DNA from: Dehalococcoidia bacterium
Lineage (GTDB): Bacteria > Chloroflexota > Dehalococcoidia > UBA2979
Length of the DNA: 39,864 bases
Reading direction: 5' to 3'
Assembly (NCBI GenBank): GCA_004296805.1
Contig: SCVR01000027.1
Coordinates: 1-39,864, forward strand
The notes beneath the pieces were generated by a model. That model worked only from the letters and a program-made list of their open reading frames with translations. It was not told the DNA's origin and did no database searches. A program made the translations under genes and the position numbers. Within the stretch, counting starts at the first letter, position 1. Each line of letters begins with the position of its first letter. Shown one piece after another: positions 178 through 22,095 of the stretch.

Positions 178-930
178 TCACCTCGCCCATCGCCCCGGTT
201 GCTCCTTCTGTGCCCGCACCTCAGCCCGTTGAGTTGCCTCGGTGGCTGCGGCGCGGTCCTGGCCGTCCAGGATCTCCTTCAATCGTTTGATGCCTTTGTG
301 CTGGAGCACTTTGACGTTGGTCTCGTGCTTCTCCAGCGCTTCGGCGGTCTCTGCGACGGTCATGCCGGCGCCGAATCGCAACTGGATGACTTCGCGCTGT
401 GCGGGGGGCAGTTGCTCCACCGCAGCGAAGATCTCCTGGATGGTGATCGAAGTTTCGGCAAGTTCTGCCGGACCTCGATGGCCGTCCGCGATCCAGTCCG
501 GCACCTCGCCCACCGTGGTCCGCAGGGCGGAGCGGCGGTAGTGCGAGACGACGTGGTTGCGAGCGATACGGAAGAGCCAGGCACGGAACGGACTTCGTTC
601 CTCAGCAGGCTCCGCCATCCCGCCCCGGCCTGCGGCTTCGGCCTGCGTGACCTCGACGCTCACCGCGATGGTGAGGGGGCCGAGGGGGCGCCACTCGAAT
701 CCGGGGACTGCGCGCATGACCTTGATGAAGATCTCTTCAGCGAGGTCCTCGGCATCGGTCTCATTGCCGACCCGAGAGAGGCAGAACCGGTAGAGCGGCT
801 CGACGTAGGCGTCGTACAGCAGCCCAACGGCCTGCTGGTCACCCCGGGCGGCGCGCTCGACGAGCGTGCGTTCCTGTTCGACCGGTAGGCCGCGCCGTGA
901 GGAATTGCGATCCGTGCCGCCAGGCTGCAC
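178..930 (-). CDS. ECF-family (sigma-70 group 4) RNA polymerase sigma factor
   Basis: Region 2 motifs are LLYDAYVEPLYRFCLSRVGNETDAEDLAEEIF and FRAWLFRIARNHVVSHYRR. Region 4 HTH is LPPAQREVIQLRFGAGMTVAETAEALEKHETNVKVLQHKGIKRL. GTG start with GAGGAG about 8 nt upstream. There is an insertion of roughly 35 aa inside region 2. Confidence 0.9.
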   Translation of the reverse strand: MQPGGTDRNSSRRGLPVEQERTLVERAARGDQQAVGLLYDAYVEPLYRFCLSRVGNETDAEDLAEEIFIKVMRAVPGFEWRPLGPLTIAVSVEVTQAEAAGRGGMAEPAEERSPFRAWLFRIARNHVVSHYRRSALRTTVGEVPDWIADGHRGPAELAETSITIQEIFAAVEQLPPAQREVIQLRFGAGMTVAETAEALEKHETNVKVLQHKGIKRLKEILDGQDRAAATEATQRAEVRAQKEQPGRWAR

Positions 931-1389: not shown

Positions 1390-1704
1390 GTAAGGGGTGA
1401 ACGGGCGTCTGGACCCTCGGGGCGAGGCCCCGGCCAGAGAAATCTGGCGGCAGGGTTAACCCAAGGGCCTCCGGCGACGTTTACTCCTTTGCGTCGAAGC
1501 AGCGTGTGCGTATCTGTGCGCGCTTCTACGATTGCAACGAATCCAGATCGGCCCCAGGGGGGACGGCGGCCACGGTTGGTGGCGTCTCGCTCGAGCGGCG
1601 GCACCAGTCGCCAGTGCCCGTCCCGGGTCCACAACGAAAGGGAACGACAGGGACACACAGACAACAATGGCTGATTCGAATCCGATTGATTCCAGGAGGA
1701 ATCC

Positions 1705-3906
1705 TTGACTTTGAAGAAAATTTTTGCACCGCTGACCGTGGTAGCGCTGGTGGCCGTGATGGCCGTCTCGCTGCTCGGCCAGCAGCGGCGGGCTGAAGCT
1801 GGCGCCATTACGGCCGTCAACTTCCAGGCCCCGGTTCAGGCCACGGGCCTGACCGAGACGTGGACGGTTTCGTTCACGACCGCTGTGACGGTTCCGGCAA
1901 CTACCGGCACCATCACGATTGACTTCCCGCAGAACTTCACGACGACCAACGTCACCGCGGCGAACATCACCCTCTCGTGGGGTGGTACGCCGACGGTCGT
2001 TTCGACGACCAACGGCCGACTGGTCATCACCAACGGCGCCACCGCCAGTGGTGCTGCTGCGGTGTCGGTGACGGTGGCGAATGTCACCAACCCGACGACC
2101 AACACCGCCCTCACGGGCGCTGCTGCTCCGACGGCTACGGCGGGCTTCTCGGTGACGACCTCGGTCGACACCGTGGACTTCGACGCGACGCCGCCGCAGA
2201 TCTGGAACACGGCCGCGACCAAGAGCCCGACCACTTCGGTCCCGGCTGACGGTGCGAGCACGGTTCTGGTCACGTTCACCCCGAGCTCGACGTCTCTGAA
2301 CGCCGGTACGGGTGTCAACGTCATCACGGCCACGACCGACATCGGCGCGTTCTCGAGCACGCCGACCGGCACGCTGGCTGCAGCGTGGACGGCGATCACG
2401 ACCCCGGTGACGACGGCGACCGGTTCGTTGACGGCCGGCACTGCCGCCGGCAACACGGGTGTCTTCACGGTGAAGGCCCCGAGCACGGCTGGCACGGCGA
2501 CGGTTGTTCTGCGCGCGACCCCGGCTAGCGGCGGCGCCGCAGTCGTGATCGGCACCACGCAGATCACGTTCACCACGGCAACGGCGCTTCCGGGCGCTGC
2601 GGCTTCGGTGACGGTTGTCCCGGCTGCTGCGTCGATTGGTAACACCACGGCGCAGAACACGGTGATCACGGCGTTGGACGCCACCGGTACCCAGGTGCTG
2701 AACGGCACCGTGGTCACGGTGACGACCAGCAACGGTACGTTCACCACGTGCCCGGGTGGCACGACGGGTAGCGGCGTCTGCACGACGTCGATCCAGGCAA
2801 ACGGTGCCGTCACTGTCGGCATCACCGGCTCTGGTGTGAGCGGGACGCAGACGATCACGGCGACGGTTGGCAGCGTTACGGGCACGGGCACGGTCACGTT
2901 GACCGGTACCACGGCTGGTTCGGTGTCGGTCGCAGTCCGTGCGGCTAACCCGACTTCTGGTGCTGCGAGCACCACTTCCGGCGCGACCACGCCGGCCCGT
3001 TGTGGCGCGTATGTTGCGGTGACTTGTTACCAGAACATCGCTTCCGCGACGGTGAAGGACGCGGCTGGCAACAACGCCGCTGGCATTGTTGTGACGTGGA
3101 CTGTGGCCCCGGCGGACGGCATTGTGTCGTTCGTCACGCCGCAGACCGACACGGCGATCACGTCCTCGGTCTCGAGCGCAGTCTCGACGATCCTTGGCCA
3201 GGCCCGCGCTGGTATCAAGGTTGCGACCACCGGCGTTGCCGGCACGGTCTACACGATCACGGCGACGGCACCGACGTCCACTGGCACGACCAATGGCACG
3301 GTGACGATCACCCTTGGTGACACGTTCTCTTCGTCCGTTGCTGCGTCGACGATGACGATCACCGCTCCGGACATGGCTGTGGCGAGCGCGGGCACGATCA
3401 CGGTCGACGTGTTGGGTGCTGCGGGCAAGCCAGTTGGCGACGGCACGTCCGTCCAGTTGGTCACGAGCGCTGGCGCCGTGGCGAACGTTGCCAACGGTCT
3501 GCCGACGGGCCCGAACCCGGCCTTCACGGTCAACGGCAAGGCGACGTTCACGTACGTCTCACCGTCGACCGCGGACACAATCAACGCCACGGCGTTGATC
3601 GGTAGCTCAGCGAAGTCGGCGACCTTCAAGGTCGGCGCTGGCTCCGTGACCCCGCCGCCTGCAGGCACGGGCTTCTCAGGTGGGACGATCGCTCCGGCTG
3701 GTGTGTCGATTGTGTCCTTCACGGGCACGACGGCTCAGCTGACGACGGCTGGTACGACCGCGAAGGTCGTGTCGGTCACGGCGACCGTTGGTGGCAAGAT
3801 GATCACGTTCGTGATCGGCGCGCCGGACTTCGTTAACGCGGAGTTCAACGCGGCGTTCCCGACGGGCCTGAACGGCACGTTGGTCATCGTCAAGACCGGC
3901 GCCTAG
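1705..3906 (+). CDS. Large secreted Thr/Ala/Val/Gly-rich surface protein with Ig-like (Big_1/invasin-type) repeats and a shared C-terminal module. S-layer-like or adhesin-like.
   Basis: TTG at 1705 sits 5 nt after AGGAGG (1694-1699). Signal peptide MTLKKIFAPLTVVALVAVMAVSLLGQQRRAEA. About four Ig-like repeats, e.g. VITALDATGTQVLNGTVVTVTTSNGTF and ATVKDAAGNNAAGIVVTWTV. Paired cysteines are present. The C-terminal 80 aa (3664-3903) is homologous to the C-termini of the 5908 and 9377 genes. Confidence 0.85.
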   Translation: MTLKKIFAPLTVVALVAVMAVSLLGQQRRAEAGAITAVNFQAPVQATGLTETWTVSFTTAVTVPATTGTITIDFPQNFTTTNVTAANITLSWGGTPTVVSTTNGRLVITNGATASGAAAVSVTVANVTNPTTNTALTGAAAPTATAGFSVTTSVDTVDFDATPPQIWNTAATKSPTTSVPADGASTVLVTFTPSSTSLNAGTGVNVITATTDIGAFSSTPTGTLAAAWTAITTPVTTATGSLTAGTAAGNTGVFTVKAPSTAGTATVVLRATPASGGAAVVIGTTQITFTTATALPGAAASVTVVPAAASIGNTTAQNTVITALDATGTQVLNGTVVTVTTSNGTFTTCPGGTTGSGVCTTSIQANGAVTVGITGSGVSGTQTITATVGSVTGTGTVTLTGTTAGSVSVAVRAANPTSGAASTTSGATTPARCGAYVAVTCYQNIASATVKDAAGNNAAGIVVTWTVAPADGIVSFVTPQTDTAITSSVSSAVSTILGQARAGIKVATTGVAGTVYTITATAPTSTGTTNGTVTITLGDTFSSSVAASTMTITAPDMAVASAGTITVDVLGAAGKPVGDGTSVQLVTSAGAVANVANGLPTGPNPAFTVNGKATFTYVSPSTADTINATALIGSSAKSATFKVGAGSVTPPPAGTGFSGGTIAPAGVSIVSFTGTTAQLTTAGTTAKVVSVTATVGGKMITFVIGAPDFVNAEFNAAFPTGLNGTLVIVKTGA

Positions 3907-3967
3907 TCATCCGGGGGCAACCCCGCTGACTGGTCTCGGTTGAGACAACTGGTTTGAAACACTGGGT

Positions 3968-3993
3968 CCCCGGAGGAGGCAACTCCTCCGGGG
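3968..3993 (+). terminator. Perfect 11-bp stem hairpin after the 1705 gene
   Basis: CCCCGGAGGAG-gcaa-CTCCTCCGGGG. No T-tract follows, which is common in high-GC genomes. Confidence 0.5.
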
Positions 3994-4036
3994 ATCTCAG
4001 AACGACAGAGGGCGGGAATCCCCCAAGGAGTTCTGC

Positions 4037-4543
4037 ATGATTTCGACTCGAAAGCTGGCTGGCATCGGTGCTGCATTCGCGGCGGCCGTTGTCCTGTTCA
4101 GCGCGTTTGCTGCCTCGGCTTCTGCTCAGACCCCGCCGTACACGGCGTACGGTGTGGGCCAGACGGCCGGCGCCAAGATCGCGGCGAACATTGCGGGCAA
4201 GGCCTGCGGTGGCGACGCGACCGTGGATGCACAGGGCAACTGGAAGATCACCATTGGCACCGACGCTGCCTGCGCCCCGAAGGAAGGCGACACTGTCTCC
4301 TTCTCGATCAACGGCGCAGCGGCGGCCCAGACGGTCAAGTGGACCGCTGGTGGCGCTCCGGCTGACGCGGCTAAGGGCATCGCCCTGACCGCGGGCGCTG
4401 CGGCCCCGGCTCCGGCCCCGGCGAAGACCGGCGACGCCGGCCTGCTGGGTTCGACCGGCACCTCGATGGCGCTGGTGCTGATGATGGGCATCGCTGCGGC
4501 CGCTCTGGTCGCTGGTGCCCGCACGGCGACCCGCGAGCGCTAG
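4037..4543 (+). CDS. Small secreted two-Cys-domain protein with an LPXTG-like (PAKTG) cell-wall sorting signal. Putative sortase substrate, paralog 1.
   Basis: AAGGAG SD before the ATG. Signal peptide ends ...ASASAQ. Domain YTAYGVG...CGG...NWKITIG...CAPKEGDTVSFSING...GGAP. The C-terminus is PAKTG-DAGLLGSTGTS, a hydrophobic stretch MALVLMMGIAAAALVAGA, and a basic tail RTATRER. Confidence 0.85.
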   Translation: MISTRKLAGIGAAFAAAVVLFSAFAASASAQTPPYTAYGVGQTAGAKIAANIAGKACGGDATVDAQGNWKITIGTDAACAPKEGDTVSFSINGAAAAQTVKWTAGGAPADAAKGIALTAGAAAPAPAPAKTGDAGLLGSTGTSMALVLMMGIAAAALVAGARTATRER

Positions 4544-4582
4544 TCGCGCGCGGATCGCTCCTGGTACTTGGTACTCAGGGGG

Positions 4583-4614
4583 CTGGGTGGCAGGCATTCG
4601 TGCCTGTCACCCAG
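4583..4614 (+). terminator. 14-bp stem hairpin between the two paralogs
   Basis: CTGGGTGGCAGGCA-ttcg-TGCCTGTCACCCAG with one G-T wobble. A T6 run follows about 25 nt downstream. Confidence 0.4.
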
Positions 4615-4685
4615 CGAGTACCGAGGGAGTATCGGGATTTTTTGGGGGGGCCGTTCCTCGGGCATTCCCGAGGGGGGAATACTGA

Positions 4686-5183
4686 ATGACGACTCGTAAG
4701 TTCATGGGCCTCGGCATCGCCATCGCGGCTGCTGTTGTGCTCTTCAGCGCGTTCGCCGCGTCGGCGTCTGCGCAGACCCCGCCGTACACCGCGTACGGCA
4801 TTGGCCAGAAGGCCGGCGCGAAGATCACCGCCAACATCGCAGGCAAGTCCTGCGGCGCTGGCGCCACGGCTGACGCGCAGGGCAACTGGAAGATCACGAT
4901 CGCGACGACCGACGCTTGTGCCCCGAAGGAAGGCGACACTGTCTCCTTCGCGATTGACGGCGCAGCGGCGGCCCAGACGGTCAAGTGGACCGCTGGTGGC
5001 GCTCCGGCTGACGCGGCCAAGGGCATCGCCCTGACCGCCGGTGCTGGCGCTCCGGCTCCCGCCAAGACGGGTGACGCGGGCCTTCTGGGCTCGACCGGCA
5101 CCTCGATGGCACTGGTCCTGATGATGGGCATCGCTGCAGCGGCTCTGGTCGCTGGTGCCCGCACGGCGACGCGCGAGCGTTAG
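4686..5183 (+). CDS. Small secreted two-Cys-domain protein with a PAKTG sorting signal. Putative sortase substrate, paralog 2.
   Basis: Same architecture as the 4037 gene. GAGGGGGGA SD. The 3' half is nearly identical in nucleotide sequence to paralog 1. Confidence 0.85.
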   Translation: MTTRKFMGLGIAIAAAVVLFSAFAASASAQTPPYTAYGIGQKAGAKITANIAGKSCGAGATADAQGNWKITIATTDACAPKEGDTVSFAIDGAAAAQTVKWTAGGAPADAAKGIALTAGAGAPAPAKTGDAGLLGSTGTSMALVLMMGIAAAALVAGARTATRER

Positions 5184-5186
5184 TCC

Positions 5187-5852
5187 GTGTACGGGATGAG
5201 GTCCAACGTGGTCGCACGGCTCTCTCGTGGAGCGGTCGCGTTGGCGCTGGGCCTCTGCCTGATCCTTGGATCGATGGGGACGGGTCCTTCCGCCTTGGCG
5301 GAGGGGCCCGTCTCTGTTTCTTCGGGTGCGGTGTTTTACGGGTATGTGCTGGCAGACGGGCAGGGTGGGCTTGCCGAGCGCGTGCGCGCGCTGAGCGTGT
5401 CCGGAGCGGTCTGCGGCACGGCGGAGGTGATCCGCCTGAGCGACGAGGCGGGGTACTACGCCGTGTCGGTCGCATCGTCCGCGCAGAAGCGCGGCTGTCC
5501 CTCGGCGGGTGGCCTGGTGCAGTTCGCGTTGCTGGCGGGCCGTGTGGACGATGGTGTCTGGGCAGGCGAGGTAGCCACATTGACGGATGGTGGCGCTCCC
5601 GTGGCGCTGAACCTGCAGCCGGCGGCCTACGTGACCGGACACTGGCTGGGTCCGTCCGGAGACATCACGCGCGACTTCTGGCTGCGCTGGGCGGGGCCGT
5701 CTGTCCCGTTGCGGGACGCGCTGGTGTCGTTGCCGTTGCCTGTCAGCGAGGTCTATTACCTCGATGCCGCGGCGGGTCAATTCCTGCTGGCGACGCCGTC
5801 TACGGATGCGACGCTCGCGTCCGGCGATCTCGTCCTCGTACGCTTCCGCTAG
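5187..5852 (+). CDS. Secreted hypothetical protein. Divergent member of the two-Cys module family with a divergent C-terminal module.
   Basis: Signal peptide ...AVALALGLCLILGSMGTGPSALAEG. Motifs FYGYV...CGTAEV...GYYAVSV...GCPSAGGLVQFALLAG...GGAP parallel the YTAYG module. The start is uncertain: GTG 5187, ATG 5196, or GTG 5208 with GAGG 6 nt upstream. Confidence 0.65.
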   Translation: MYGMRSNVVARLSRGAVALALGLCLILGSMGTGPSALAEGPVSVSSGAVFYGYVLADGQGGLAERVRALSVSGAVCGTAEVIRLSDEAGYYAVSVASSAQKRGCPSAGGLVQFALLAGRVDDGVWAGEVATLTDGGAPVALNLQPAAYVTGHWLGPSGDITRDFWLRWAGPSVPLRDALVSLPLPVSEVYYLDAAAGQFLLATPSTDATLASGDLVLVRFR

Positions 5853-5907
5853 GCTGGACAGCGTCCAGACTCGGACCCGGTGCTCGCGATCTTCAGTGGG
5901 GACATCA

Positions 5908-7062
5908 ATGACCAGGCTTTCCACGAGATTCAGTCTGCCCAGCGTCCTTTCGGCATTTGCCGTGGCGGTGGCGTTGCTGGCGGGCTCATCGCCTCGTGTC
6001 GCGTCTGCCGCGCTCGTGGTGCCACCGGTGTTCACGGCGCCGATCCAGGCGACCGGGCTGACCGAGACGTGGACGATCAACGGGTGGCAGGGATCCGTGC
6101 CGAACCACATCACCTCCGTGACGGTGACCTTCCCCGCCGGGTTCGTGATTCCCAACAACCCCACCGTCACTGTGACGGCGAACGCGCTGGCGTGTACGGT
6201 CCGAACTGCGGCACGGACGGATCAGTCGGTGGTGATCGCGGTGACTGGCACCTGCGAGACCAGCGCGGCCGTGGGGCGTCAGTCGATCACGATCGCTGGA
6301 GTCACGAATCCGACGGCTGCGGGCACGATCGCTGCGGCGGGCTTCACGCTGGCCACGAATGTGGACTCGGAGACCGCGGCGAGCGCGGGCGTGACGATCT
6401 GGGGGATCACGACCAATCCGACGGTTTGCACCACCTCGGCCGGTGTCAGTACCGCGGAAGTCACGTTCGTTTCGACCGGTGGTGGCGTGGCCGCCAACAC
6501 AGGGTCAGGTCGGGCTGCTGCGTTGCAGGTGACCCTGAGCGCGGGCTCGTTCAGGTGGACCCCGTTCTTCACGGGTACGCTGGGTACGATCGACACCGCA
6601 GGGGTGACTGCAACAACTGCGGCGGCCTCGGTGGCGGCCGGCGTATCTTCCGGCTCGTCTCTGGCCGTGGGCCTGGGCCTCTCCGGCGCGACGGTGGTGA
6701 CAGTGACGCTGCGGGTGACGCCGGCGACCGGCGGCACCTCGGTCTTGCTCGGGTCGCGGGAGGTGACGTTCACCGACAGCACCTGTGTCGCACCGGCGAC
6801 CACACCGAGGCCGCCGTCCGGCACGGCGGGCACGTTCTCCGGCGGCACGATCGCTGCCTCGGGTGTCTCGATCGTGTCGTTCAGCGGGACGACGGCGCAG
6901 CTGGACACGGCGGGCGCGGCGGCGAAGGTGACGTCCGTTTCGGCGACGGCGAGCGGACGGATGCTGACGTTCGTGGTGGGTGCGCCATCGTTCGTGAACG
7001 CTGATTTCAACGCGGCATTCCCGATCGGCCTGAGCAGCACGCTGGTGATCGTCAAGACATAG
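5908..7062 (+). CDS. Secreted Thr-rich surface protein sharing both the N-terminal motif and the C-terminal module of the 1705 gene
   Basis: An internal ATG at 5908 (TGGGGA SD) gives the signal peptide MTRLSTRFSLPSVLSAFAVAVALLAGSSPRVASA. The track ORF starts at 5764 and would overlap the previous gene. FTAPIQATGLTETWT matches FQAPVQATGLTETWT of the 1705 gene. The C-terminal module is at 6829-7059. Confidence 0.8.
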   Translation: MTRLSTRFSLPSVLSAFAVAVALLAGSSPRVASAALVVPPVFTAPIQATGLTETWTINGWQGSVPNHITSVTVTFPAGFVIPNNPTVTVTANALACTVRTAARTDQSVVIAVTGTCETSAAVGRQSITIAGVTNPTAAGTIAAAGFTLATNVDSETAASAGVTIWGITTNPTVCTTSAGVSTAEVTFVSTGGGVAANTGSGRAAALQVTLSAGSFRWTPFFTGTLGTIDTAGVTATTAAASVAAGVSSGSSLAVGLGLSGATVVTVTLRVTPATGGTSVLLGSREVTFTDSTCVAPATTPRPPSGTAGTFSGGTIAASGVSIVSFSGTTAQLDTAGAAAKVTSVSATASGRMLTFVVGAPSFVNADFNAAFPIGLSSTLVIVKT

Positions 7063-7091
7063 CCCCGGGACGCGCTCGAAGCGTTGATGTG

Positions 7092-7127
7092 GTGGGGGGC
7101 GGCCCTGTCCATGAGGCGGCCCCCCAC
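7092..7127 (+). terminator. GC-rich hairpin after the 5908 gene
   Basis: GTGGGGGGC (7092-7100) pairs with GCCCCCCAC (7119-7127). It is followed by ACTTTCACT. Confidence 0.45.
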
Positions 7128-7259
7128 ACTTTCACTGCGCACCTCGTTCTCAATGTGTGACCGTGCCTTCGCTGGCTGTTTGGTGGCAGGCCCGCGCATG
7201 GCTCGGTACCCTAGAGGCGGACACTCCCACCACCGGAATCGACTGACTGAGGTTGCCTC

Positions 7260-8096
7260 ATGCTGACCTCGCGTGGATTGGTGCGCGGACTGACGCGCGC
7301 TGTCTCGGGTGCCATCGAGTGGCTGCGGCGCGATGGGCGGCGCAGCCTTCGGTGGTGGCCGCTGCTCGCTCTGTCGGTCCTGTTGGCGGCGACGCTGACT
7401 TCCTGCAGCAACAAGGACAAGAATGCGGTGCGGTTGCTGACGCCAACGCCGACCTCGGCGGGTGCGAGCGCGACGCCGACGCCGTCTCATCCGGACGAGG
7501 CTGCGCCCCCGCTGCCGACGCCGAAGGTGACACCTCCACCGGACGCGAACAAGTTGTTCCGGAACCTGGACGACTTCCTGAAGGAGTACGACTACCCGAA
7601 GGACGCGAACTTCGCGCGGATCAAGATCCCGGCGATCAGCGTCGACGCGCGTGTGGCGTCTCGGACGGTGGGGCGTGACGGGATCATGGCGGACCCGGCG
7701 GGGCCGGCCGACGTGATCTGGTATGACCTGAGCGGTTGGCCGGGCCTCGGCGGGAAGCCGGGCGAGGGCGGCAACGCGATCTTCTCCGGGCACGTGGACT
7801 ACGACTACCTGATCCCGTACGCGGGTGTGCGCTATCGCGGCCAGGGCGTGTTCTCGAAGATCTCGGCGCTGTCGACGGGCGACCTGATCGAGGTGGAGTA
7901 CGGCGGCAAGGTGCTGCGGTACCAGGTGGTGTCGCGTCGGCAGTACAACGCTGGAAGCGGCGTGGACTGGACGACGGTGTGGTCGGGCAAGGTGCCGAAG
8001 GACACGATCACGCTCTACACGTGTGGTGGCGCCTTCGACACGATCACGAAGGAGTACTCGGACCGGGTGGTCGTGAGGGCCGAACGCGTCCCGTAG
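7260..8096 (+). CDS. Sortase-family transpeptidase, class-F-like, with an N-terminal anchor and a Pro/Thr-rich linker
   Basis: IKIPAISVDARV motif. Catalytic His in NAIFSGHVDY (codon 7791-7793), Cys in ITLYTCGGAFD (codon 8022-8024), Arg in VVVRAE. The GHVD and TCGGxFD forms resemble class F sortases. The N-terminus is RRDGRRSLRWWPLLALSVLLAATLTSC, a lipobox-like L-T-S-C after a hydrophobic stretch. Confidence 0.85.
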   Translation: MLTSRGLVRGLTRAVSGAIEWLRRDGRRSLRWWPLLALSVLLAATLTSCSNKDKNAVRLLTPTPTSAGASATPTPSHPDEAAPPLPTPKVTPPPDANKLFRNLDDFLKEYDYPKDANFARIKIPAISVDARVASRTVGRDGIMADPAGPADVIWYDLSGWPGLGGKPGEGGNAIFSGHVDYDYLIPYAGVRYRGQGVFSKISALSTGDLIEVEYGGKVLRYQVVSRRQYNAGSGVDWTTVWSGKVPKDTITLYTCGGAFDTITKEYSDRVVVRAERVP

Positions 8097-8195
8097 CCCG
8101 GCCACTTCTCCCATACTGAGAAGTTCGCTTCGGGCTTGAGTGTGCGCACCCTGGCCCGTAGCGAGGGTTCTCCTGCGCTCGACAGCCGGCCTTTC

Positions 8196-8201
8196 TACAC
8201 T
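8196..8201 (+). promoter_or_regulatory. -10-like TACACT placed 6 nt before the mnmA ATG (candidate leaderless promoter)
   Basis: Sequence reads TACACT-ggatcc-ATG. No SD is present. Confidence 0.3.
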
Positions 8202-8207
8202 GGATCC

Positions 8208-9305
8208 ATGACCGCACGCGTCCTCGTCGCCATGTCGGGTGGAGTCGACTCCGCCGTCGCCGCCGCCCTGCTCCACGAGCAGGGATACGACGTCGTGGGC
8301 GTCACGCTGCGCCTCTACACCGAGGCCGACGACACCGCCCTCCGCTCCGGCCGCACCTGCTGCGGCATCGAGGACGTCGGAGATGCGCGGGCCGCCGCAC
8401 AGGCGATCGGCATCCCGCACTACGTCCTCAACATGGAGCGCGAGTTCGAGCGCGACGTGGTCGAGCCGTTCGTCGACGCCTACCGGAATGGCCGCACCCC
8501 GAACCCCTGCCTCAACTGCAACCAGTACGTGAAGTTCGACACCCTGCTCAACCGCGCCCTCGCGATGGGCGTCGACTACCTCGCCACCGGCCACTACGCG
8601 AGGGCTGAGCGGGACGGCGATGTCGTCCGCCTGCATCGCGCCGTCGACGACGAGAAGGACCAGTCGTACGTCCTCTACACCCTCAACCAGGACGCGCTGC
8701 GTCGCACGCTCTTCCCGCTCGGCGGGCTGACGAAGGCGGAGACGCGCGCCCACGCGCGGCGGTTCGGGCTTCCGCTCGCCGAGAAGCCGGACAGCGTGGA
8801 CATCTGCTTCGTCCCCGGCGGTGACTACCGCGAGTTCCTCGCCGTGCGCGGCGTTACCGGCACCCCCGGCGACATCGAGCGGCCCGACGGCACCCGCGCC
8901 GGCACGCACCTCGGCATCCCGCTCTACACGGTGGGCCAGCGGCGAGGCGTCCCCGTCACACCGAGCCCCGGTGCAGACGGCGCACCCGCCCGCCAGTTCG
9001 TCACCGCCATCGATGTCGCACGCAACACCATCACCGTGGGCGACGAGCGCGATCTCCTCGCCTCGCAGATCGAGGCGAGCGCGCCTCACTGGACCACCAC
9101 CGCGCCCCAGCCCGGCGACGCTGTCACCGCACGGATCCGCTACCACGCCACCGACCTCCCCGCGCATGTCATCGAGGCCAGCGACGGCCGCCTCACGCTC
9201 GCCCTCGACGTCCCCGCCCGCGCCATCGCTCCCGGCCAGGCCGTTGTCCTCTACCGCGGCACCGAGGTCCTCGGCGGTGCGACCATCGAGGGGTCGTGGC
9301 GGTAG
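8208..9305 (+). CDS. mnmA: tRNA 2-thiouridine(34) synthase MnmA
   Basis: PP-loop VLVAMSGGVDSAVAA, plus CCGIEDVGDARAAA and RTPNPCLNCNQYVKF. The start is set at the internal ATG 8208 (MTARVLVAMSGG) rather than the track start at 8136. Confidence 0.92.
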   Translation: MTARVLVAMSGGVDSAVAAALLHEQGYDVVGVTLRLYTEADDTALRSGRTCCGIEDVGDARAAAQAIGIPHYVLNMEREFERDVVEPFVDAYRNGRTPNPCLNCNQYVKFDTLLNRALAMGVDYLATGHYARAERDGDVVRLHRAVDDEKDQSYVLYTLNQDALRRTLFPLGGLTKAETRAHARRFGLPLAEKPDSVDICFVPGGDYREFLAVRGVTGTPGDIERPDGTRAGTHLGIPLYTVGQRRGVPVTPSPGADGAPARQFVTAIDVARNTITVGDERDLLASQIEASAPHWTTTAPQPGDAVTARIRYHATDLPAHVIEASDGRLTLALDVPARAIAPGQAVVLYRGTEVLGGATIEGSWR

Positions 9306-9376
9306 AGGCGCCGAGAGATCCAGGTTGCTTTAGGCTGCGCGGCGCGATGTCCGTGTATGCGTCGAAGGAGTCTCGT

Positions 9377-10012
9377 ATGACCGCGATCCGACGACTGGCT
9401 GGCCTCGGGCTGGCGCTGGTGGTGTGCGCGGGGCTCCTGACCGCGACAGCGGCTCCGGCCGCGGCGCAGCAGGCCGCGCCGTATACGGCCTACGGCGTGG
9501 GGCTGAGGGCGGGCGCGATGATCGGCGCGAACATCGGCGGCCGGTCGTGCGGGCCGGCGGTCGCCGTGACCGCGACGGGCACGTGGCTCATGTACATCGC
9601 GGTCAGTTCGCCCTGCTCACCGCGCGCCGGTGACGTCGTGTCGTTCACCGTGGACGGCCAGGCGGCGGAGCAGACGGTCACCTGGTCCGAAGGTGGCGCG
9701 CCTGCGAACGCGGCGGCGGGGATTGCCCTCACCGTGGCGGCGCCGAAGCCCACCGTGACGACCGCCGCAGCGCCGGCCGCCGGCGGCTTCACGGGCTCGA
9801 TCTCGCCCTCGGGAGTCTCGCTCGCCTCGTTCACCGGCACCACGGCGCAACTCGACACCGCGGGCGCGGCCGTGAAGGCCACCTCGATCTCAGCGACCCT
9901 GGGCGGGAAGGTGCTGACGTTCGTCGTCGGCGCGCCGAGCTTCGTGAACACCGAGTTCAACACCGCGTTCGCAAGCGGGCTGCAGGGCACGCTGGTGATT
10001 GTGAAGACCTAG
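9377..10012 (+). CDS. Secreted fusion protein: two-Cys YTAYG module plus the shared C-terminal module
   Basis: AAGGAG SD precedes ATG 9377. Signal peptide MTAIRRLAGLGLALVVCAGLLTATAAPAAA. The N-terminal half is homologous to the 4037/4686 proteins. The C-terminal 76 aa (9782-10009) is homologous to the C-termini of the 1705/5908 proteins. No sorting signal is present. Confidence 0.85.
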   Translation: MTAIRRLAGLGLALVVCAGLLTATAAPAAAQQAAPYTAYGVGLRAGAMIGANIGGRSCGPAVAVTATGTWLMYIAVSSPCSPRAGDVVSFTVDGQAAEQTVTWSEGGAPANAAAGIALTVAAPKPTVTTAAAPAAGGFTGSISPSGVSLASFTGTTAQLDTAGAAVKATSISATLGGKVLTFVVGAPSFVNTEFNTAFASGLQGTLVIVKT

Positions 10013-10029: not shown

Positions 10030-10620
10030 CTAACTCCGCGCGAACGCGAGGAGCGGCGCGATCTCCCCAGCGTCCGCGCTCGTGAGCGCGGCGCGGTACG
10101 CCGCGCGCAGTCCGTCCGTGTCGACCTCAAGGCCGGCGCCCCAGGAGAACGGCCGCCCGCCGAGCGCCTCGACGAGGTAGTCGGCGGCGATCCTCGAGTG
10201 ACGGCCGTTGCCGTTGGGGAACGGGTGGACCTGCACCAGCCGGTGGTGGAAGCGCACGGCGATCTCGTCGCGCGGATACGTGCCGTACTCCACCCACGCG
10301 CGCACGTCCTCCACGAGGACGCGCACCGCCTCGGTGATCCGGTGAAAGGCGATACCAAGGTTCGTGTCAGTGGTGCGATAGCGGCCCGCCCAGCGCCAGA
10401 CATCCCCGAACATCGCCCGGTGCAACCCTCGCAGGTACGCGTCGTCGAGCAGCTGCGCGACGGTGGGCGGGCGTCGCAGCAACGCAGTCGCAATGTTGCG
10501 TTGCTCGGCTTCGAAGAGGTCGCCGCGGCTCGCGATGTGCGTGGGGATGAGGCCGCGCCGGTCGTCCTCGGCGAGTGCGGTGTGGCCGTCGCCCGCCGGG
10601 ATGAGCGGATCGAGGGTCAT
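10030..10620 (-). CDS. Fic/DOC-family protein (mobile mystery protein B type)
   Basis: Fic motif HPFPNGNGRHSR, with Asn where the canonical HxFx(D/E)GNGRxxR motif has D/E. About 196 aa. It begins 3 nt after the stop of the upstream HTH gene. Confidence 0.85.
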   Translation of the reverse strand: MTLDPLIPAGDGHTALAEDDRRGLIPTHIASRGDLFEAEQRNIATALLRRPPTVAQLLDDAYLRGLHRAMFGDVWRWAGRYRTTDTNLGIAFHRITEAVRVLVEDVRAWVEYGTYPRDEIAVRFHHRLVQVHPFPNGNGRHSRIAADYLVEALGGRPFSWGAGLEVDTDGLRAAYRAALTSADAGEIAPLLAFARS

Positions 10621-10623
10621 CGA

Positions 10624-11175
10624 TCACTCCCCGGCAGGCGGCGACCCGTACGCAGGCTCGTCCGACGGTCCGCCCTCGGGCTCTGCCCACAGCCCTCGAC
10701 GGTCCACGAAGCGGGCCGCCAGGTCATCGAGCAGGTTGGTGGTGCCGAGGTAGTCCACCGACTGGTCCTCGAGGCGGCTGTGGTGTGCCACCCGCCCGAG
10801 GTGCCGTGCCGCCTTCTGGCGGGCCTGCGTGCGGACGGCGTCATCCAGGGTGACCCGCGGCACCAGCGCGTAGACGACGTCGCAGTCGAGCGCGCGGGCG
10901 ACGCGACGCAGGGTCTCCAGCTTGATGGTGTCCCGCTGCTCGCTCTGTTCGAGGTCCGAGATCACCTGCTGGCTTACGCCCATGCGATGCGCCAGTTCGG
11001 TGCTCGACATGCCCAGGGCATCGCGGATGGCACGGATCCACCCGAGGTGCGGGCGCGGTTCCGCCGCCAGCCCTCGGAATGACCGAAGCCGCTCATCGAG
11101 CCGGAGTCGTGCCTGAGCGTGACCGCTGACGTTGTTCATGTTGCCGATTCTACTGGCTATAGGATGTGATGTCAA
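10624..11175 (-). CDS. XRE-family helix-turn-helix protein (mobile mystery protein A type)
   Basis: HTH IRDALGMSSTELAHRMGVSQQVISDLEQSEQRDTIKLETLRRVARAL. An alternative start at 11139 gives MNNVSG.... It is coupled to the Fic gene. Confidence 0.8.
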   Translation of the reverse strand: MTSHPIASRIGNMNNVSGHAQARLRLDERLRSFRGLAAEPRPHLGWIRAIRDALGMSSTELAHRMGVSQQVISDLEQSEQRDTIKLETLRRVARALDCDVVYALVPRVTLDDAVRTQARQKAARHLGRVAHHSRLEDQSVDYLGTTNLLDDLAARFVDRRGLWAEPEGGPSDEPAYGSPPAGE

Positions 11176-12009: not shown

Positions 12010-12095
12010 GGAGAGGTGGCCGAGCGGTTGAAGGCGCTCGTCTCGAAAACGAGTAAACGCAAGTTTCGCGGGTTCGAATCCCGCCCTCTCCGCCA
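12010..12095 (+). tRNA. tRNA-Ser (anticodon CGA), class II with a long variable arm and encoded CCA
   Basis: Hand fold: acceptor GGAGAGG/CCTCTCC, D-stem GCC/GGC, anticodon stem CTCGT/ACGAG with loop CTCGAAA, variable arm AAAC-gcaa-GTTT, T-arm GCGGG-TTCGAAT-CCCGC, discriminator G, CCA. Confidence 0.9.
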
Positions 12096-12187: not shown

Positions 12188-12277
12188 GGAGAGGTGCTGG
12201 AGTGGTTGAACAGGCTCGCCTGGAAAGCGTGTAATGGGGTAACTCATTCGCGGGTTCGAATCCCGCCCTCTCCGCCA
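12188..12277 (+). tRNA. tRNA-Ser (anticodon GGA), class II, encoded CCA
   Basis: The acceptor and T-arm are the same as in the first tRNA. D-stem CTG/CAG. Anticodon stem CTCGC/GCGTG has one U-U mismatch; loop CTGGAAA. Long variable arm. Confidence 0.85.
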
Positions 12278-16616: not shown

Positions 16617-17813
16617 GTGACTGCTCAGCCGATCCGAACAGTAGGGGTGGGCGGCTTCGAGGTCACGCCGGAGGCTCGGGCCGCGGTGATGGCGGTGCTG
16701 GACTCCGGCCGGCTGTCGTACGGGCCGGTGACGAAGGAGTTCGAGGGTACGTTCGCGCGCGACCACAACCTGAGGTTCGCCGCGTTCTGCAACAGCGGCA
16801 CGAGCGCGCTGCATGTGGCGATGCAGGCGCTGAAGATCCTCGGTGAGTGGCAGGACGGCGACCAGGTGATCGTGCCGGCCGTGACGTTTGTGGCGACCTC
16901 GAACATCGTGCTGCACAACAACCTGACCCCGGTCTTCGTGGACATCGAGTGGGGGCGGTACGGTCTGAACCCCGCGCTCCTCGAGGCGGCGATCACGCCT
17001 CGGACGCGGGCGATCATCCCGGTGCACCTGTTCGGGCAGGCGTGCGACATGGGGCCGATCATGGAGATCGCGCGGCGCCATGACCTGCGCGTCCTGGAAG
17101 ATTCGTGCGAGGCGATGTACGCGAAGTACGAAGGGAAGTCGGTCGGGTCGTTCGGTGACGCCTCGGCGTTCTCGACGTACGCGGCACACGTGCTGGTGAC
17201 GGGCGTGGGCGGCCTCGCGTGCTCGAACCGACCCGAGGTGGCGCAGTTGATGCGCAGCCTGTTGAACCACGGACGGGACGGCATCTACATCGCGATCGAC
17301 GACGACGAGGTGGAGGGCGAGGCGCTGAAGGAAGTGATGTCGCGCCGCTTCGTCTTCGAGCACGTAGGCCACAGTTTCCGGGCGACGGAGATGGAGGCAG
17401 CCCTGGGCGTGGTGCAGTTGAAGGACGCAGCCTCGCTGGTGGCGAAGCGCCGGGCGATCGCGGCTCGGCTGACGGCAGGCCTCGCGCCGTACGGGGAGCG
17501 GCTGATCCTGCCGAAGATGCACGCGGGCTCGGACCACTCGTTCATGATGTACCCGATCGTGACGGGGCCGGGCGTCGACCGCGACGACCTGACGTTCTAC
17601 CTGGAAGAGCACGGGGTGGAGACGCGGCACATGATGCCGCTGACGAACCAGCCGATCTATGAGCGGATGTGGCCGGGGTTGGAGGCGCGGTTCCCGGTGG
17701 CGCGCGAGATCAACCGGCGCGGGTTCTACATCGGTTCGCACCCGGCGATGTCGCTGGATGACGCGGACTACGTTGCCGAGGTGTTCGGCGACTACTTCTC
17801 GCAGCAGAAATAG
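16617..17813 (+). CDS. DegT/DnrJ/EryC1/StrS-family PLP/PMP enzyme with His in place of the Schiff-base Lys. ColD-like sugar 3-dehydratase candidate.
   Basis: CNSGTSALHVAMQAL, GDQVIVPAVTFVATSN, IIPVHLFGQACDM, LEDSCEAM. Segment FSTYAAHVLVTGVGG aligns with FSFHAIKNITxxEGG of aminotransferases, with His (codon 17187-17189) at the Lys position. The C-terminus RGFYIGSHP...DADYVAEVF resembles the ColD tail. Confidence 0.75.
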   Translation: MTAQPIRTVGVGGFEVTPEARAAVMAVLDSGRLSYGPVTKEFEGTFARDHNLRFAAFCNSGTSALHVAMQALKILGEWQDGDQVIVPAVTFVATSNIVLHNNLTPVFVDIEWGRYGLNPALLEAAITPRTRAIIPVHLFGQACDMGPIMEIARRHDLRVLEDSCEAMYAKYEGKSVGSFGDASAFSTYAAHVLVTGVGGLACSNRPEVAQLMRSLLNHGRDGIYIAIDDDEVEGEALKEVMSRRFVFEHVGHSFRATEMEAALGVVQLKDAASLVAKRRAIAARLTAGLAPYGERLILPKMHAGSDHSFMMYPIVTGPGVDRDDLTFYLEEHGVETRHMMPLTNQPIYERMWPGLEARFPVAREINRRGFYIGSHPAMSLDDADYVAEVFGDYFSQQK

Positions 17814-17817
17814 CGAC

Positions 17818-18804
17818 ATGCGGATCCTCGCGACCGGAGTGACGGGGCAGGCGGGGTACTACCTCGCGCGCCACGCCGCGTCGCAGGGGCACGAGGTGCA
17901 CGGTCTGGCGCGGCCCGGGTCGGTCGCGACGGCGGAGGCGATGCTGGGCACGTCGACGCTGGGGGCTTCCGGTGTGCGCATCCACGCGGGCGACGTGCGA
18001 GACCAAGGCGTCCTGGATGCGGTCGTGGCGGCGGTGCGGCCGGAGCGGGTGTTCCACTTCGCGGCCGGCGTATCGGTGGCGGCGTCGTGGGAGGACCCGG
18101 TAGGGCACGCCGACGTGAACGCGCTCGGCACGGCGCGGCTGCTTGAGGCGGTGCGGGCGCACGCGCCACAGGCGCGGTTCTTCTACGCATCGTCGTCGGA
18201 GGCGCTGGGGCGTGCGGCCTCGATGACCGAGGTGTTCGACGAGCGATCGCCGCTGCGCCCGGCGACGCCATACGGGGTGTCGAAAGCATTCGGGCACCAC
18301 CTTGTGCGTGCCTACCGGGACCGGTACGGGATGTTTGCGGTGTGCGGCGTGATGTTCAACATCGAGTCCCCGGTGGGAGTGCGTGCGTCCGTGGTGCAGC
18401 ATGTGGCGGCGTCGATGGTGCGGATCGCTGAGGGGCGACAGGCGGTGTCGATAGAGATCGGCAACCTGGACGCGCAGAGGGACTGGGGCTTCGCGGGGGA
18501 TTACGTGGAAGCGGCGGCGCTGATGCTGGAGCAGCCGGAGCCGGATGATCTGGTAATCGCGACGGGGGTTGTGCACACGGTGCGAGACCTCGTCGCGTCG
18601 GCGGCCTCGGCGGCGGGAATCGCCGTGCCGGCGCTACAGGTGTCGGAGGACCGGTTGCGGCCGGGCGAGGTGAACCGGATCGCGGCCGACCCGTCGCTGA
18701 TCCGGGCACGGCTCGGGTGGTCGGCGCGGACAGACCTGGACGGGCTGCTGCGGATCATCGTCAGCGATCCGGCGTTCCGGGCGCGCGCGTTGGCGGGCGG
18801 ATGA
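17818..18804 (+). CDS. Gmd/Rmd-family NAD(P)-dependent SDR (GDP-4-keto-6-deoxyhexose reductase-like)
   Basis: An internal ATG at 17818 gives MRILATGVTGQAGYYLARH (GxxGxxG). Also YASSSEALG, TPYGVSK (YxxxK), MFNIESPVG, GNLDAQRDWGFAGDYVEA, DLVIATGVVHTVRDL. It is a paralog of the gmd gene but diverged. It starts 5 nt after the previous stop. Confidence 0.75.
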   Translation: MRILATGVTGQAGYYLARHAASQGHEVHGLARPGSVATAEAMLGTSTLGASGVRIHAGDVRDQGVLDAVVAAVRPERVFHFAAGVSVAASWEDPVGHADVNALGTARLLEAVRAHAPQARFFYASSSEALGRAASMTEVFDERSPLRPATPYGVSKAFGHHLVRAYRDRYGMFAVCGVMFNIESPVGVRASVVQHVAASMVRIAEGRQAVSIEIGNLDAQRDWGFAGDYVEAAALMLEQPEPDDLVIATGVVHTVRDLVASAASAAGIAVPALQVSEDRLRPGEVNRIAADPSLIRARLGWSARTDLDGLLRIIVSDPAFRARALAGG

Positions 18805-18805
18805 A

Positions 18806-20002
18806 GTGTCGCTGACACTGGACCGGCCGTGGGCATTGGCGGTCGCCGTCGGGTTCGGCCTGGTCGCGATCTATCCGTGGTTGATCTACCCCGCTGTGCT
18901 CCGGGCGGTCACGTGGCGAGTGCGCGGCGTCCAGCATCGCGACCCCGAGGAGTGGCCCTCGATCACGGTGCTGGTGGCTGCACGGAACGAGGAAGCGCAC
19001 ATCGTGGCGCGGGTGGAGAACATTCTCGCGAGGGACTATCCGCGAGATCGTCTCTCGATCGTGTGCGTGTCAGACGGCTCAGATGATGGTACGGACCAGT
19101 TGTTCCGCGAGGCCGCCCGGCCGTTGGGCGATCGGGCGACGCTGGTCCGGCAGCCGGTGCAGTTGGGGAAGTCCGCTGCGTTGCAGGTCGGGTGGCGCGA
19201 GGTGCAGAGCGACGTGGTGGTGCTTACGGACGCCAACGCGCACTTCGAGCCAGGCACCCTGCGGGCGCTCGCGCGGCCGTTCTCCGATCCGCGTGTGGGG
19301 GCGGTGGCCGGTGTGAAGCGGATCCGGGTGCCGGAGGATGCGTCCACTCACGAGGCCGGGGAGGGCGCGTACTGGCACTTCGAGTCTCGGCTACGTGCCG
19401 ACGAGAGCCGGCTGGGTCTGTGCCAGAGCGCGGACGGCGCCTGCTGGGCGGTGAGGCGGACGTTGTGGGACGGCAGCGGGCCTCGCGGCCGGTTTGCCGA
19501 TGATCTGTGGGGTGCGCTGGAGGTGCAGCGACAGGGATACCGGGTGGAGGCCACGCTGGATGCGGTAGCGAGTGAGGACGCCGCGGCCTCGCTGAGCGCG
19601 GAGGTGCAGCGGAAGCGGCGGACGCAGTACGGGCTACTGCTGCTGTTGCCGCACCTTGGCTGGATGCTGATGCCATCTCGATGGCGTTCGCTGTGGTGCT
19701 TCGTGTCGCACAAGGTGCTGCGCCTGGCGACGCCGTGGGCGCTAGTGGGCCACGTCGTGGCGCTGGCAGTGGCTGATGGGGTGTGGAGTGTCATCGCAGT
19801 TGCCGAGGCGCTGGTGGCTGCCGGTCTGATGGCTATCGCAGCGGGTGGTACTGCGACCTCGCGACGGATGCGTGTCCTTACGGATGGTGGGTACTTCTTG
19901 ATCGCGTTGATCGGGCCTGCGATCGCATGTCTGGATGCGGCGTGGGCGCTGGTCAGGCGAGACCCTGGCGAGTCCGCCTGGCAGCCGGGGGCGCATCGCT
20001 AG
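18806..20002 (+). CDS. GT2-family glycosyltransferase with flanking TM helices (synthase-like topology)
   Basis: PSITVLVAARNEE, VSDGSDDGT, VVLTDANAHFEPG (DxD-like), QRKRRTQYG (QxxRW-like). There are N-terminal and several C-terminal hydrophobic segments. It starts 2 nt after the previous stop. Confidence 0.85.
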   Translation: MSLTLDRPWALAVAVGFGLVAIYPWLIYPAVLRAVTWRVRGVQHRDPEEWPSITVLVAARNEEAHIVARVENILARDYPRDRLSIVCVSDGSDDGTDQLFREAARPLGDRATLVRQPVQLGKSAALQVGWREVQSDVVVLTDANAHFEPGTLRALARPFSDPRVGAVAGVKRIRVPEDASTHEAGEGAYWHFESRLRADESRLGLCQSADGACWAVRRTLWDGSGPRGRFADDLWGALEVQRQGYRVEATLDAVASEDAAASLSAEVQRKRRTQYGLLLLLPHLGWMLMPSRWRSLWCFVSHKVLRLATPWALVGHVVALAVADGVWSVIAVAEALVAAGLMAIAAGGTATSRRMRVLTDGGYFLIALIGPAIACLDAAWALVRRDPGESAWQPGAHR

Positions 20003-20013
20003 CGCGGCGTGCC

Positions 20014-22005: not shown

Positions 22006-22095
22006 AGGACACGCCCTTCGAGGTGGTTTCGGTACTGTACCAACGGTTTACGGGTCAGGATCGAGTCGAGCATGACGAACGTCACTCTGTGAGAT

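Follow-up and report, generated by a model that had tools for sequence, protein, structure and literature searches.

What keeps secreted proteins at the cell surface when only two of six encoded side by side carry a cell-wall sorting signal is the question raised by a gene cluster on contig SCVR01000027.1 (assembly GCA_004296805.1) of a Dehalococcoidia bacterium, analysed here as one stretch of 39,864 nucleotides (the window). The cluster consists of eight genes on the plus strand at 1705-10012, namely A, B1, B2, C′, D, a sortase gene, mnmA and F. The first-pass annotation of this DNA had described it as six signal-peptide proteins built from three shared modules, N, Y and C, around a sortase, and the open reading frames (ORFs), BLASTP comparisons and motifs all match that description. 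We propose that the cluster could represent a lineage-specific surface-display system of Dehalococcoidia-type Chloroflexota, in which sortase-anchored Y proteins would be accompanied by C-module proteins attached non-covalently; judged from the sequences, we place the probability of this reading somewhat below even.

Organization of the cluster

The genes of the cluster, with the divergent gene and the leader that precede it, are the following.

178-930, minus strand: extracytoplasmic function (ECF) sigma factor gene, divergent from the cluster; Pfam Sigma70_r2/r4, best NCBIfam model BldN-family TIGR02952 (139 bits, cutoff 206)
1455-1704, plus strand: leader, about 250 nt long, in front of gene A, with a GGAGGA ribosome-binding site at its end; conserved blocks in an alignment with the related locus L320
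1705-3906, plus strand: protein A, 733 aa; signal peptide, module N (1789-2229), central region presumed beta-rich or immunoglobulin (Ig)-like, module C (3655-3903)
4037-4543, plus strand: protein B1, 168 aa; signal peptide, module Y (4130-4393), Ala/Pro linker, PAKTGDAGL from 4418, membrane helix, RTATRER
4686-5183, plus strand: protein B2, 165 aa, a paralogue of B1; module Y (4776-5039), sorting signal PAKTG (5058-5072)
5187-5852, plus strand: protein C′, 221 aa; signal peptide, divergent Y-like region (about 5283-5603), degenerate C-like region (about 5637-5843)
5908-7062, plus strand: protein D, 384 aa; signal peptide, module N (5992-6432), middle region, module C (6817-7059)
7260-8096, plus strand: class-F-like sortase, 278 aa; PF04203, with NF033748 as the best class model
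8136-9305, plus strand: mnmA, between the sortase gene and F
9377-10012, plus strand: protein F, 211 aa; signal peptide, module Y (9473-9736), linker, module C (9770-10009)

Each of the six secreted-protein ORFs starts with a hydrophobic leader and has an AxA-type site behind it, the signal peptides having been judged by eye, and none of the six proteins matched a Pfam or NCBIfam model at threshold. In an all-against-all BLASTP comparison, B1 and B2 were 87% identical (2e-101), and F was 46% identical to B1/B2 (3e-45), with the Y domain aligning to its N-terminal half, while A, D and F were connected through E-values of 1e-43 (A and D), 1e-34 (A and F) and 6e-35 (D and F). The final approximately 80 residues of A, D and F, all ending in LVIVKT, are 66-70% identical. 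According to a regular-expression and hidden Markov model (HMM) scan of all window ORFs, modules Y and C are confined to the genes named above and the sorting signal to B1 and B2, in agreement with the earlier statement that only the two Y-only proteins carry it.

Module N, about 145 aa long, is common to the N-terminal parts of proteins A and D and holds the motif F-x-A-P-[VI]-Q-A-T-G-L-T-E-T-W-T (FQAPVQATGLTETWT at 1822-1866 and FTAPIQATGLTETWT at 6031-6075). This sharing had been noticed before, but as an N-terminal motif; since the A-type protein of L320 carries two module N copies in tandem, module N is a repeatable domain and not a terminal motif. No Pfam, NCBIfam or PDB-sequence match was found for it, PDB profile searches with the A- and D-type families gave nothing meaningful, and D matched nothing in Pfam. 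Protein A is composed of 22% Thr and 5% charged residues. The Ig-like repeats expected in it received weak backing, as Big_1 and Invasin_D3 gave weak matches in three of the 11 A-family members and none in A itself.

The assignment of divergent Y and C modules to C′ depended on the depth of the alignment. With close homologues only, module Y was weakly detected and module C was not detected, whereas with a broader family alignment hhalign connected C′ both to the Y-anchor proteins (98.5%, E=2e-15) and to module C (90.6%, E=1.3e-6). Because of these broad-alignment matches, C′ is regarded as a Y-C fusion of divergent sequence; its copy in the window has lost the GAPxFVN segment.

The sortase and its putative substrates

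The sortase matches PF04203 over the complete profile (60.9 bits, cutoff 26.6; E=1.3e-16; profile positions 1-125 of 125). Among the class-specific models, NF033748 (class F) scored best, with 75.2 bits that do not reach the curated cutoff of 166, followed by class C with 21.6 bits; five Chloroflexota homologues named "class F sortase" by NCBI miss this cutoff alike, at 59-75 bits. The enzyme is thus class-F-like in a sub-cutoff sense, and it lies inside the cluster as previously proposed, although mnmA parts it from F. The catalytic residues H178 (SGHVDY, 7785-7802), C255 (TLYTCGG, 8010-8030) and R276 (VRAER, 8073-8087) are invariant in 30 homologues. Behind an N-terminal hydrophobic segment, a lipobox-like LTSC is found at 7395-7406 (residues 46-49), with the consensus A-C-x-G in 30 Chloroflexota homologues, and by this sequence feature the clade may be lipid-anchored, as lipoproteins, and not plainly membrane-anchored.

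Proteins B1 and B2 carry PAKTG sites at 4418-4432 and 5058-5072, respectively, within a C-terminal sorting region (PAKTGDAGLLGSTGTSMALVLMMGIAAAALVAGARTATRER) made of an xxxTG-type motif, a hydrophobic helix and a basic tail. This tripartite layout is retained across 25 divergent Y-only homologues, which share P-[AP]-x-T-G-[ND]-A-G-L, then the helix, then A-G-A-R-x-A-T-R-R, with T131, G132, A134, G135 and R162 invariant or nearly so. The substrates adjoining the sortase therefore do not carry LPXTG, and TIGR01167 (LPXTG_anchor) found nothing at E<=1. Sortase signals are described as LPXTG for classes A and F and LAXTG for class E (PMC8225981).

The sortase resembles class F SrtF of Propionibacterium/Cutibacterium acnes in its sortase fold, its invariant His-Cys-Arg and its best profile, and differs from class F in the sub-cutoff scores, the signal of its substrates and the lipobox-like N-terminus. 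It is seemingly a single housekeeping-type enzyme encoded beside its substrate, as with class F and E sortases, and the Ala at position -2 of the Chloroflexota signal recalls the class E LAxTG of Actinobacteria (PMC8225981).

In a DNA-pattern scan for the sorting signal, chance matches in GC-rich sequence dominated, and real matches were found only in L218, L219 and L222, all from Chloroflexota. Loci of another kind (L219:2342-6966 and L084:6918-11185) hold three or four tandem sortase paralogues beside non-Y proteins with P-x-x-T-G-[ND]-[AG]-G, so the signal is not limited to substrates with a Y domain.

Gene order across Chloroflexota

Co-occurrence of the modules with sortases was compared in Chloroflexota, on 80 loci around relatives of the window sortase (36-76% identity, nearly all labelled Chloroflexota). 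Among the 60 loci with at least 2.5 kb of DNA before the sortase gene, 15 encode a signal-bearing protein in the 2.5 kb directly ahead of it and in the same orientation, and 13 of these 15 proteins carry module Y; downstream of the sortase, such a protein was found in one of 66 loci. The supposed link between Y-only proteins and the sortase is borne out by this comparison. Considering the tripartite signal, its conservation throughout the lineage and this polar adjacency, B1 and B2 are, by sequence and gene order, very probably anchored covalently by the neighbouring sortase.

Furthermore, of the 22 distinct Y-anchor genes for which 1.5 kb or more of upstream DNA was available, 15 have a gene for a C-module protein (X-C) 78-186 bp upstream on the same strand, and three others are the second copy of a tandem Y pair. 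These X-C proteins are of the Ig-repeat type like A, with weak Big_1, Invasin_D3, Big_9 or Cadherin_5 matches, and the X-C/Y-anchor pair is also present at a distance from the sortase (L048, L061, L063, L112 and L197). In L012, L022, L025, L030, L036 and L055, a member of the C′ (Y′-C′) family is encoded between Y-anchor and sortase. The recurrent unit is therefore X-C, Y-anchor in one or two copies, Y′-C′ and sortase, and the window holds a full copy of it plus the extra N-C protein D. Close relatives of the window (L005, L007 and L320) keep the order C′-D-sortase, while L006 has its sortase gene in opposite orientation. A divergent ECF sigma gene also adjoins the cluster in L320. In the window, this gene and gene A are separated by a 774-bp spacer (931-1704), and the leader at its end has blocks that are conserved in L320 (GGTTAACCCAAGGG, CGCTCGAGCGGCGGCA and GAAAGGGAACGnCAGGGACA, in addition to GGAGGA). 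The adjacency of mnmA and F is kept in the relative L319.

Two arrangements seen in these loci stand apart. In L016, L019, L020 and L028 (region of about 5.3-9.1 kb of each locus), the Y-anchor and sortase genes are preceded not by X-C but by a gene whose product, 950-1037 aa long, has a LuxR-type helix-turn-helix at its C-terminus, which suggests a different regulatory arrangement in this sub-lineage. In L320 (1099-7978), the unit of A and Y-anchor is present twice over 3278 bp with 100% DNA identity; either the unit was duplicated very recently or the contig was scaffolded wrongly, and this repeat was not used as evidence.

Module Y

Although modules N, Y and C had all been considered unassignable, and this stands for N and for C, it does not stand for Y, which can probably be placed in the superfamily of Ig-like extenders of RTX adhesins. 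Module Y comprises about 88 residues with a conserved Cys pair and a GGAP motif, and is present singly or in arrays of up to four copies per protein. The match to NF033510 (Ca_tandemer) is sub-threshold (E about 6e-4, 20 bits, cutoff 50). A profile built from 25 Y-anchor proteins matched the tetra-tandemer 4P99 with E=1.1e-10, a value summed over four biased and individually weak repeats, as the repeats taken one by one gave independent E-values of 0.002-1; for the single domain 4KDV the value was E=1.7e-3. The AlphaFold2 (AF2) model of module Y is a beta-sandwich, for which Foldseek returned only generic Ig-like and CnaB-like neighbours, with CE20 ancillary and CnaB2 domains at the top (E about 0.1). 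Because the region II (RII) profile match, the modelled fold and the Foldseek neighbours point in one direction, module Y is best interpreted as a divergent bacterial Ig-like (BIg) extender domain of the MpIBP-RII/Ca_tandemer type, to which its per-repeat matches are weak.

With these weak per-repeat scores, the profile of module Y aligns to MpIBP/MpAFP region II (4P99, 4KDV; NF033510) over G-x-x-x-G-D-x-V ... D-a-x-G-x-W-s-v, and other proteins carry module Y in tandem arrays. Unlike MpIBP RII, module Y has the Cys pair and GGAP, and a lone copy here makes up the entire passenger of an anchored protein.

Module C

Modelled alone from a 60-sequence alignment, module C reached a mean predicted local distance difference test (pLDDT) of 94.9 and a predicted template modelling score (pTM) of 0.85. 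The predicted order of elements is strand-strand-helix-strand-strand-helix-strand, a small alpha/beta domain of about 80 aa, and its hallmark G-A-P-x-F-V-N-x-x-F lies at the junction of the third strand and the second helix. Pfam found nothing over 60 module C sequences, a PDB profile search returned chance matches only, and Foldseek with the model gave a best E of 1.5 in the PDB and no significant match in BFVD, with no wall-binding fold among the matches listed. Across these Pfam, PDB profile and Foldseek searches, no sequence or fold similarity to SPOR, LysM, CWB2 or SLH was detected. A SPOR or ferredoxin-like fold, hinted at by the beta-alpha-beta-beta-alpha-beta topology, was dropped on account of the Foldseek result. 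As far as the models go, module C is a new, confidently folding domain family without detectable relatives.

An exhaustive HMM search with the Y+C profile gave 540 cluster representatives at E<=1e-3. Module C is present in one to five copies per protein and mostly, not always, at the C-terminus. The architectures include Y-C, YYYYCC, YYYCC, YYYC, Y-C-Trypsin_2 and C-SNase-Excalibur, as well as cadherin, Kelch or Calx-beta proteins ending in CC. Away from the C-terminus, it is found in proteins P0053 (residues 126-201 of 616), P0087 (42-116, before SNase) and P0068, and it stands in tandem in many proteins. The first-pass annotation was hence right that module C closes A, D and F with LVIVKT, but not that it is a C-terminal domain by nature. 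For the same reason, namely that the extreme C-terminal position is not obligatory, a C-terminal sorting domain of the type IX secretion system CTD or PEP-CTERM type was rejected. Matches to NACHT "NCH3" in large C-module proteins were judged to be low-complexity artefacts, with no single stretch passing. The diversity of exported cargo and the variable copy number and position argue for a binding or retention module and not a secretion signal, a function that we predict with moderate confidence.

A scan for GAPxFVNxxF as a DNA pattern, with one genome per species, returned 117 stretches. Module C was confirmed by HMM in 85 of them, all 85 labelled Chloroflexota (Dehalococcoidia and Tepidiformaceae), and in none of the 26 matches from other phyla. 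A single module C HMM match outside Chloroflexota is located at L228:227-943, on a contig labelled "Actinomycetes bacterium", which could reflect either mis-binning or a real transfer. One 3.3-Mb genome contains at least 14 module C loci, with CC-ended proteins of up to 2652 aa. The homologues of F and D come from Dehalococcoidia metagenome-assembled genomes (MAGs), and MurB is encoded in a related MAG.

Proposed mechanism and alternatives

In the mechanism that we propose, B1 and B2 would be exported, after which the membrane-bound sortase would cleave between Thr and Gly of P-A-K-T-G-D-A-G-L and join Thr covalently to the cell wall, leaving a lone Ig-like Y domain on an Ala/Pro stalk. The anchorless proteins, A and D as well as the fusions F and C′, would be kept at the surface non-covalently through module C, which elsewhere in these genomes would likewise hold proteases, nucleases and cadherin-like adhesins. 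The attachment point of module C would be the anchored Y layer, either by direct C-Y binding or by Y-C adaptors through Y-Y and C-C contacts. This is the least certain step and is put forward tentatively, as a possibility short of an even chance; it is favoured because of the X-C/Y-anchor pair, the conserved Y′-C′ gene, the scaffold-like proteins of Y(n)C(n) type and the outcome of a mirror-tree comparison. In 13 loci, the distances of C and Y correlated with r=0.79, and with a partial r=0.57 given the sortase distances, a value reached by none of 2000 permutations. As a signal of docking, this correlation is suggestive only.

Several observations weigh against such a system. The mirror-tree correlation is confounded by shared phylogeny. 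About 80 of the 85 module C loci have neither a Y-anchor nor a sortase within about 4 kb, so the expected co-occurrence of C modules with the sortase system holds for the X-C/Y-anchor pair and the Y′-C′ gene but not for most C-module genes. Conversely, the four loci with the LuxR-type protein have a Y-anchor and a sortase without a C-module gene nearby. The AF2 model of F (pTM 0.45) shows no packing between modules Y and C, the linker of which is disordered, and the Y-C homologues of F are solitary in more distant genomes. Finally, the CC tandems that end proteins as long as 2652 aa resemble classical wall- or S-layer (surface-layer)-binding repeats more than dockerins.

The last point leads to the alternative that survives best, although we consider it unlikely. 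Module C could be a general envelope-binding module, directed to peptidoglycan, a secondary wall polymer or the S-layer in the manner of SLH, CWB2, SPOR or LysM and having no contact with Y, while the sortase-anchored Y proteins would form a separate, co-regulated class of surface proteins. Tandem copies, up to five, on very large proteins and enzymes throughout the genome and mostly far from any sortase or Y-anchor would fit this well, as would the number of module C loci in the 3.3-Mb genome and the glycan-synthesis cluster 6.6 kb downstream within the window, and the unpacked Y and C of the F model point to a wall polymer or S-layer ligand. Related to this, a p4 S-layer has been described in Tepidiforma species, with candidate proteins of 1230-1419 aa, A0A5J6SYT4, A0A2A9HDU3 and A0A7Y5SD43 among them, from Tepidiforma and a Dehalococcoidia bacterium (bioRxiv 10.1101/2024.05.28.596244), and the Tepidiformaceae loci L093 and L124 encode CC-ended proteins of 1222 and 1247 aa, near these candidates in size. 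What envelope binding leaves unexplained is the X-C gene directly before 15 of the 22 Y-anchor genes and the Y′-C′ fusion conserved between anchor and sortase, and the structure predicted for module C did not detectably resemble SPOR, LysM, CWB2 or any other wall-binding fold that has been solved.

It is also conceivable, but quite improbable, that there is no physical system at all, only a rapidly expanding paralogous family of secreted, low-complexity proteins rich in Ala, Thr and Gly that happens to lie near a housekeeping sortase and shares modules through domain shuffling. The interruption of the cluster by mnmA, the solitary F-type genes, the lack of a recognisable substrate directly upstream in 45 of the 60 related sortase loci and the fully identical unit duplication of L320, possibly an assembly artefact, could all be read in this way. 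Such a reading is opposed by the strongly polar gene order, conserved across sortases only 40-55% identical, and by module C, which is well folded (pLDDT 95) with conserved motifs and not low-complexity.

A sortase-polymerised fibre, with Y proteins as pilins linked Thr-to-Lys and A or D as tip or accessory subunits, has in its favour the B1/B2 duplication and a superficially pilus-operon-like order of large Ig-repeat protein, small signal-bearing protein and sortase, but it was rejected as very improbable, because the 25-member Y-anchor alignment has no conserved Lys and neither A nor D has the sorting signal that a tip pilin needs (F lacks it as well), and since the sortase is nearest to class F and not to the pilus-specific class C (75 against 22 bits) and the Y domain of about 88 residues is far smaller than known pilin folds.

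Comparison with known surface systems

The surface-display reading proposed here would follow a working logic like that of the ScaE cohesin with XDoc modules, or like that of anchored long chaplins nucleating short ones under BldN. In Ruminococcus flavefaciens, the sortase-anchored scaffoldin ScaE functions with the XDoc-bearing ScaB and CttA in a cohesin-dockerin system (PMC5301203). As with ScaE, a small single-domain beta-sandwich protein is predicted here to be fixed to the wall by a sortase, larger anchorless proteins encoded alongside carry a putative docking module, mostly at the C-terminus, and there are adaptors or scaffolds with several anchor-type domains (YYYYCC). Unlike cohesin, module Y is of the RTX-adhesin BIg type, and unlike the Ca-binding EF-hand dockerin, module C is an alpha/beta domain that can be tandem or internal. 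The cargo would consist of proteases, nucleases and adhesins instead of glycoside hydrolases, and the host belongs to Chloroflexota. Neither the window proteins nor the C-module proteins scanned gave cohesin or dockerin Pfam matches. The resemblance to cohesin-dockerin systems lies in the logic only.

With regard to chaplins, the cluster similarly combines anchored and unanchored members that share a domain, and a gene for a BldN-like ECF sigma factor is adjacent and conserved. The BldN regulon includes chaplins. The anchored chaplins of Streptomyces carry a sortase signal (PMC8225981). On the other hand, the proteins resemble chaplin domains neither in sequence nor in fold, and the sigma factor scores under the BldN-family cutoff.

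Other features of the window

In the leader of gene A, no Rfam family match was found. A scan for promoters and terminators gave no signal exceeding the shuffled expectation. Just after gene F, on the minus strand (10030-11175), a Fic/DOC-family protein (10030-10620) and an HTH_3 protein (10624-11175) are encoded, a pair that looks like a toxin-antitoxin module. Two tRNA genes, tRNA-Ser (CGA) at 12010-12095 and tRNA-Ser (GGA) at 12188-12277, were called in agreement by ARAGORN and Rfam, whereas the "tRNA-Pro(AGG)" of 98 nt called by ARAGORN at 31597-31694 has no Rfam support and is probably false. The glycan-synthesis genes, at 16617-22866, encode a DegT-type aminotransferase, a GDP-mannose-dehydratase-like epimerase, a GT2 glycosyltransferase and a Bac_transf priming transferase; their product could be a wall polymer, or could serve the glycosylation of the Thr-rich protein A.

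Significance

Aquifers, lakes, sediments and the deep ocean harbour abundant Chloroflexota of the Dehalococcoidia type, almost all of them uncultured and with a poorly known envelope biology. A candidate substrate signal is now defined for their sortase clade, a small Ig-like protein is identified as the most frequent neighbour of this sortase, and a conserved four-gene unit is exposed. The module C family, which may be present in many copies per genome, is delineated as a marker of the secreted or surface proteome of the lineage. Sortase-anchored display with non-covalent accessory modules is known in kind; the novelty is in domain C, which has no detectable relatives, and in the divergent pair of sortase and signal.

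If module C docks or binds the wall, it would provide a handle for predicting surface proteomes from MAGs and possibly a new orthogonal pair for protein display. Taken further, the surface of Dehalococcoidia and Tepidiformia might to a large part be organised by a private two-module docking code, with the Ig-like Y planted covalently in the wall by a divergent lipoprotein-type sortase that recognises P-x-x-T-G-N-A-G-L, the structurally new alpha/beta domain C plugging the cargo onto it, and Y-C and Y(n)-C(n) proteins as adaptors and scaffolds, although in our estimate this is unlikely. Should it be true, the code would be a cohesin-dockerin-like system independently invented from unrelated folds, and it would cover Ig-repeat layer proteins, proteases, nucleases, adhesins and perhaps the S-layer.

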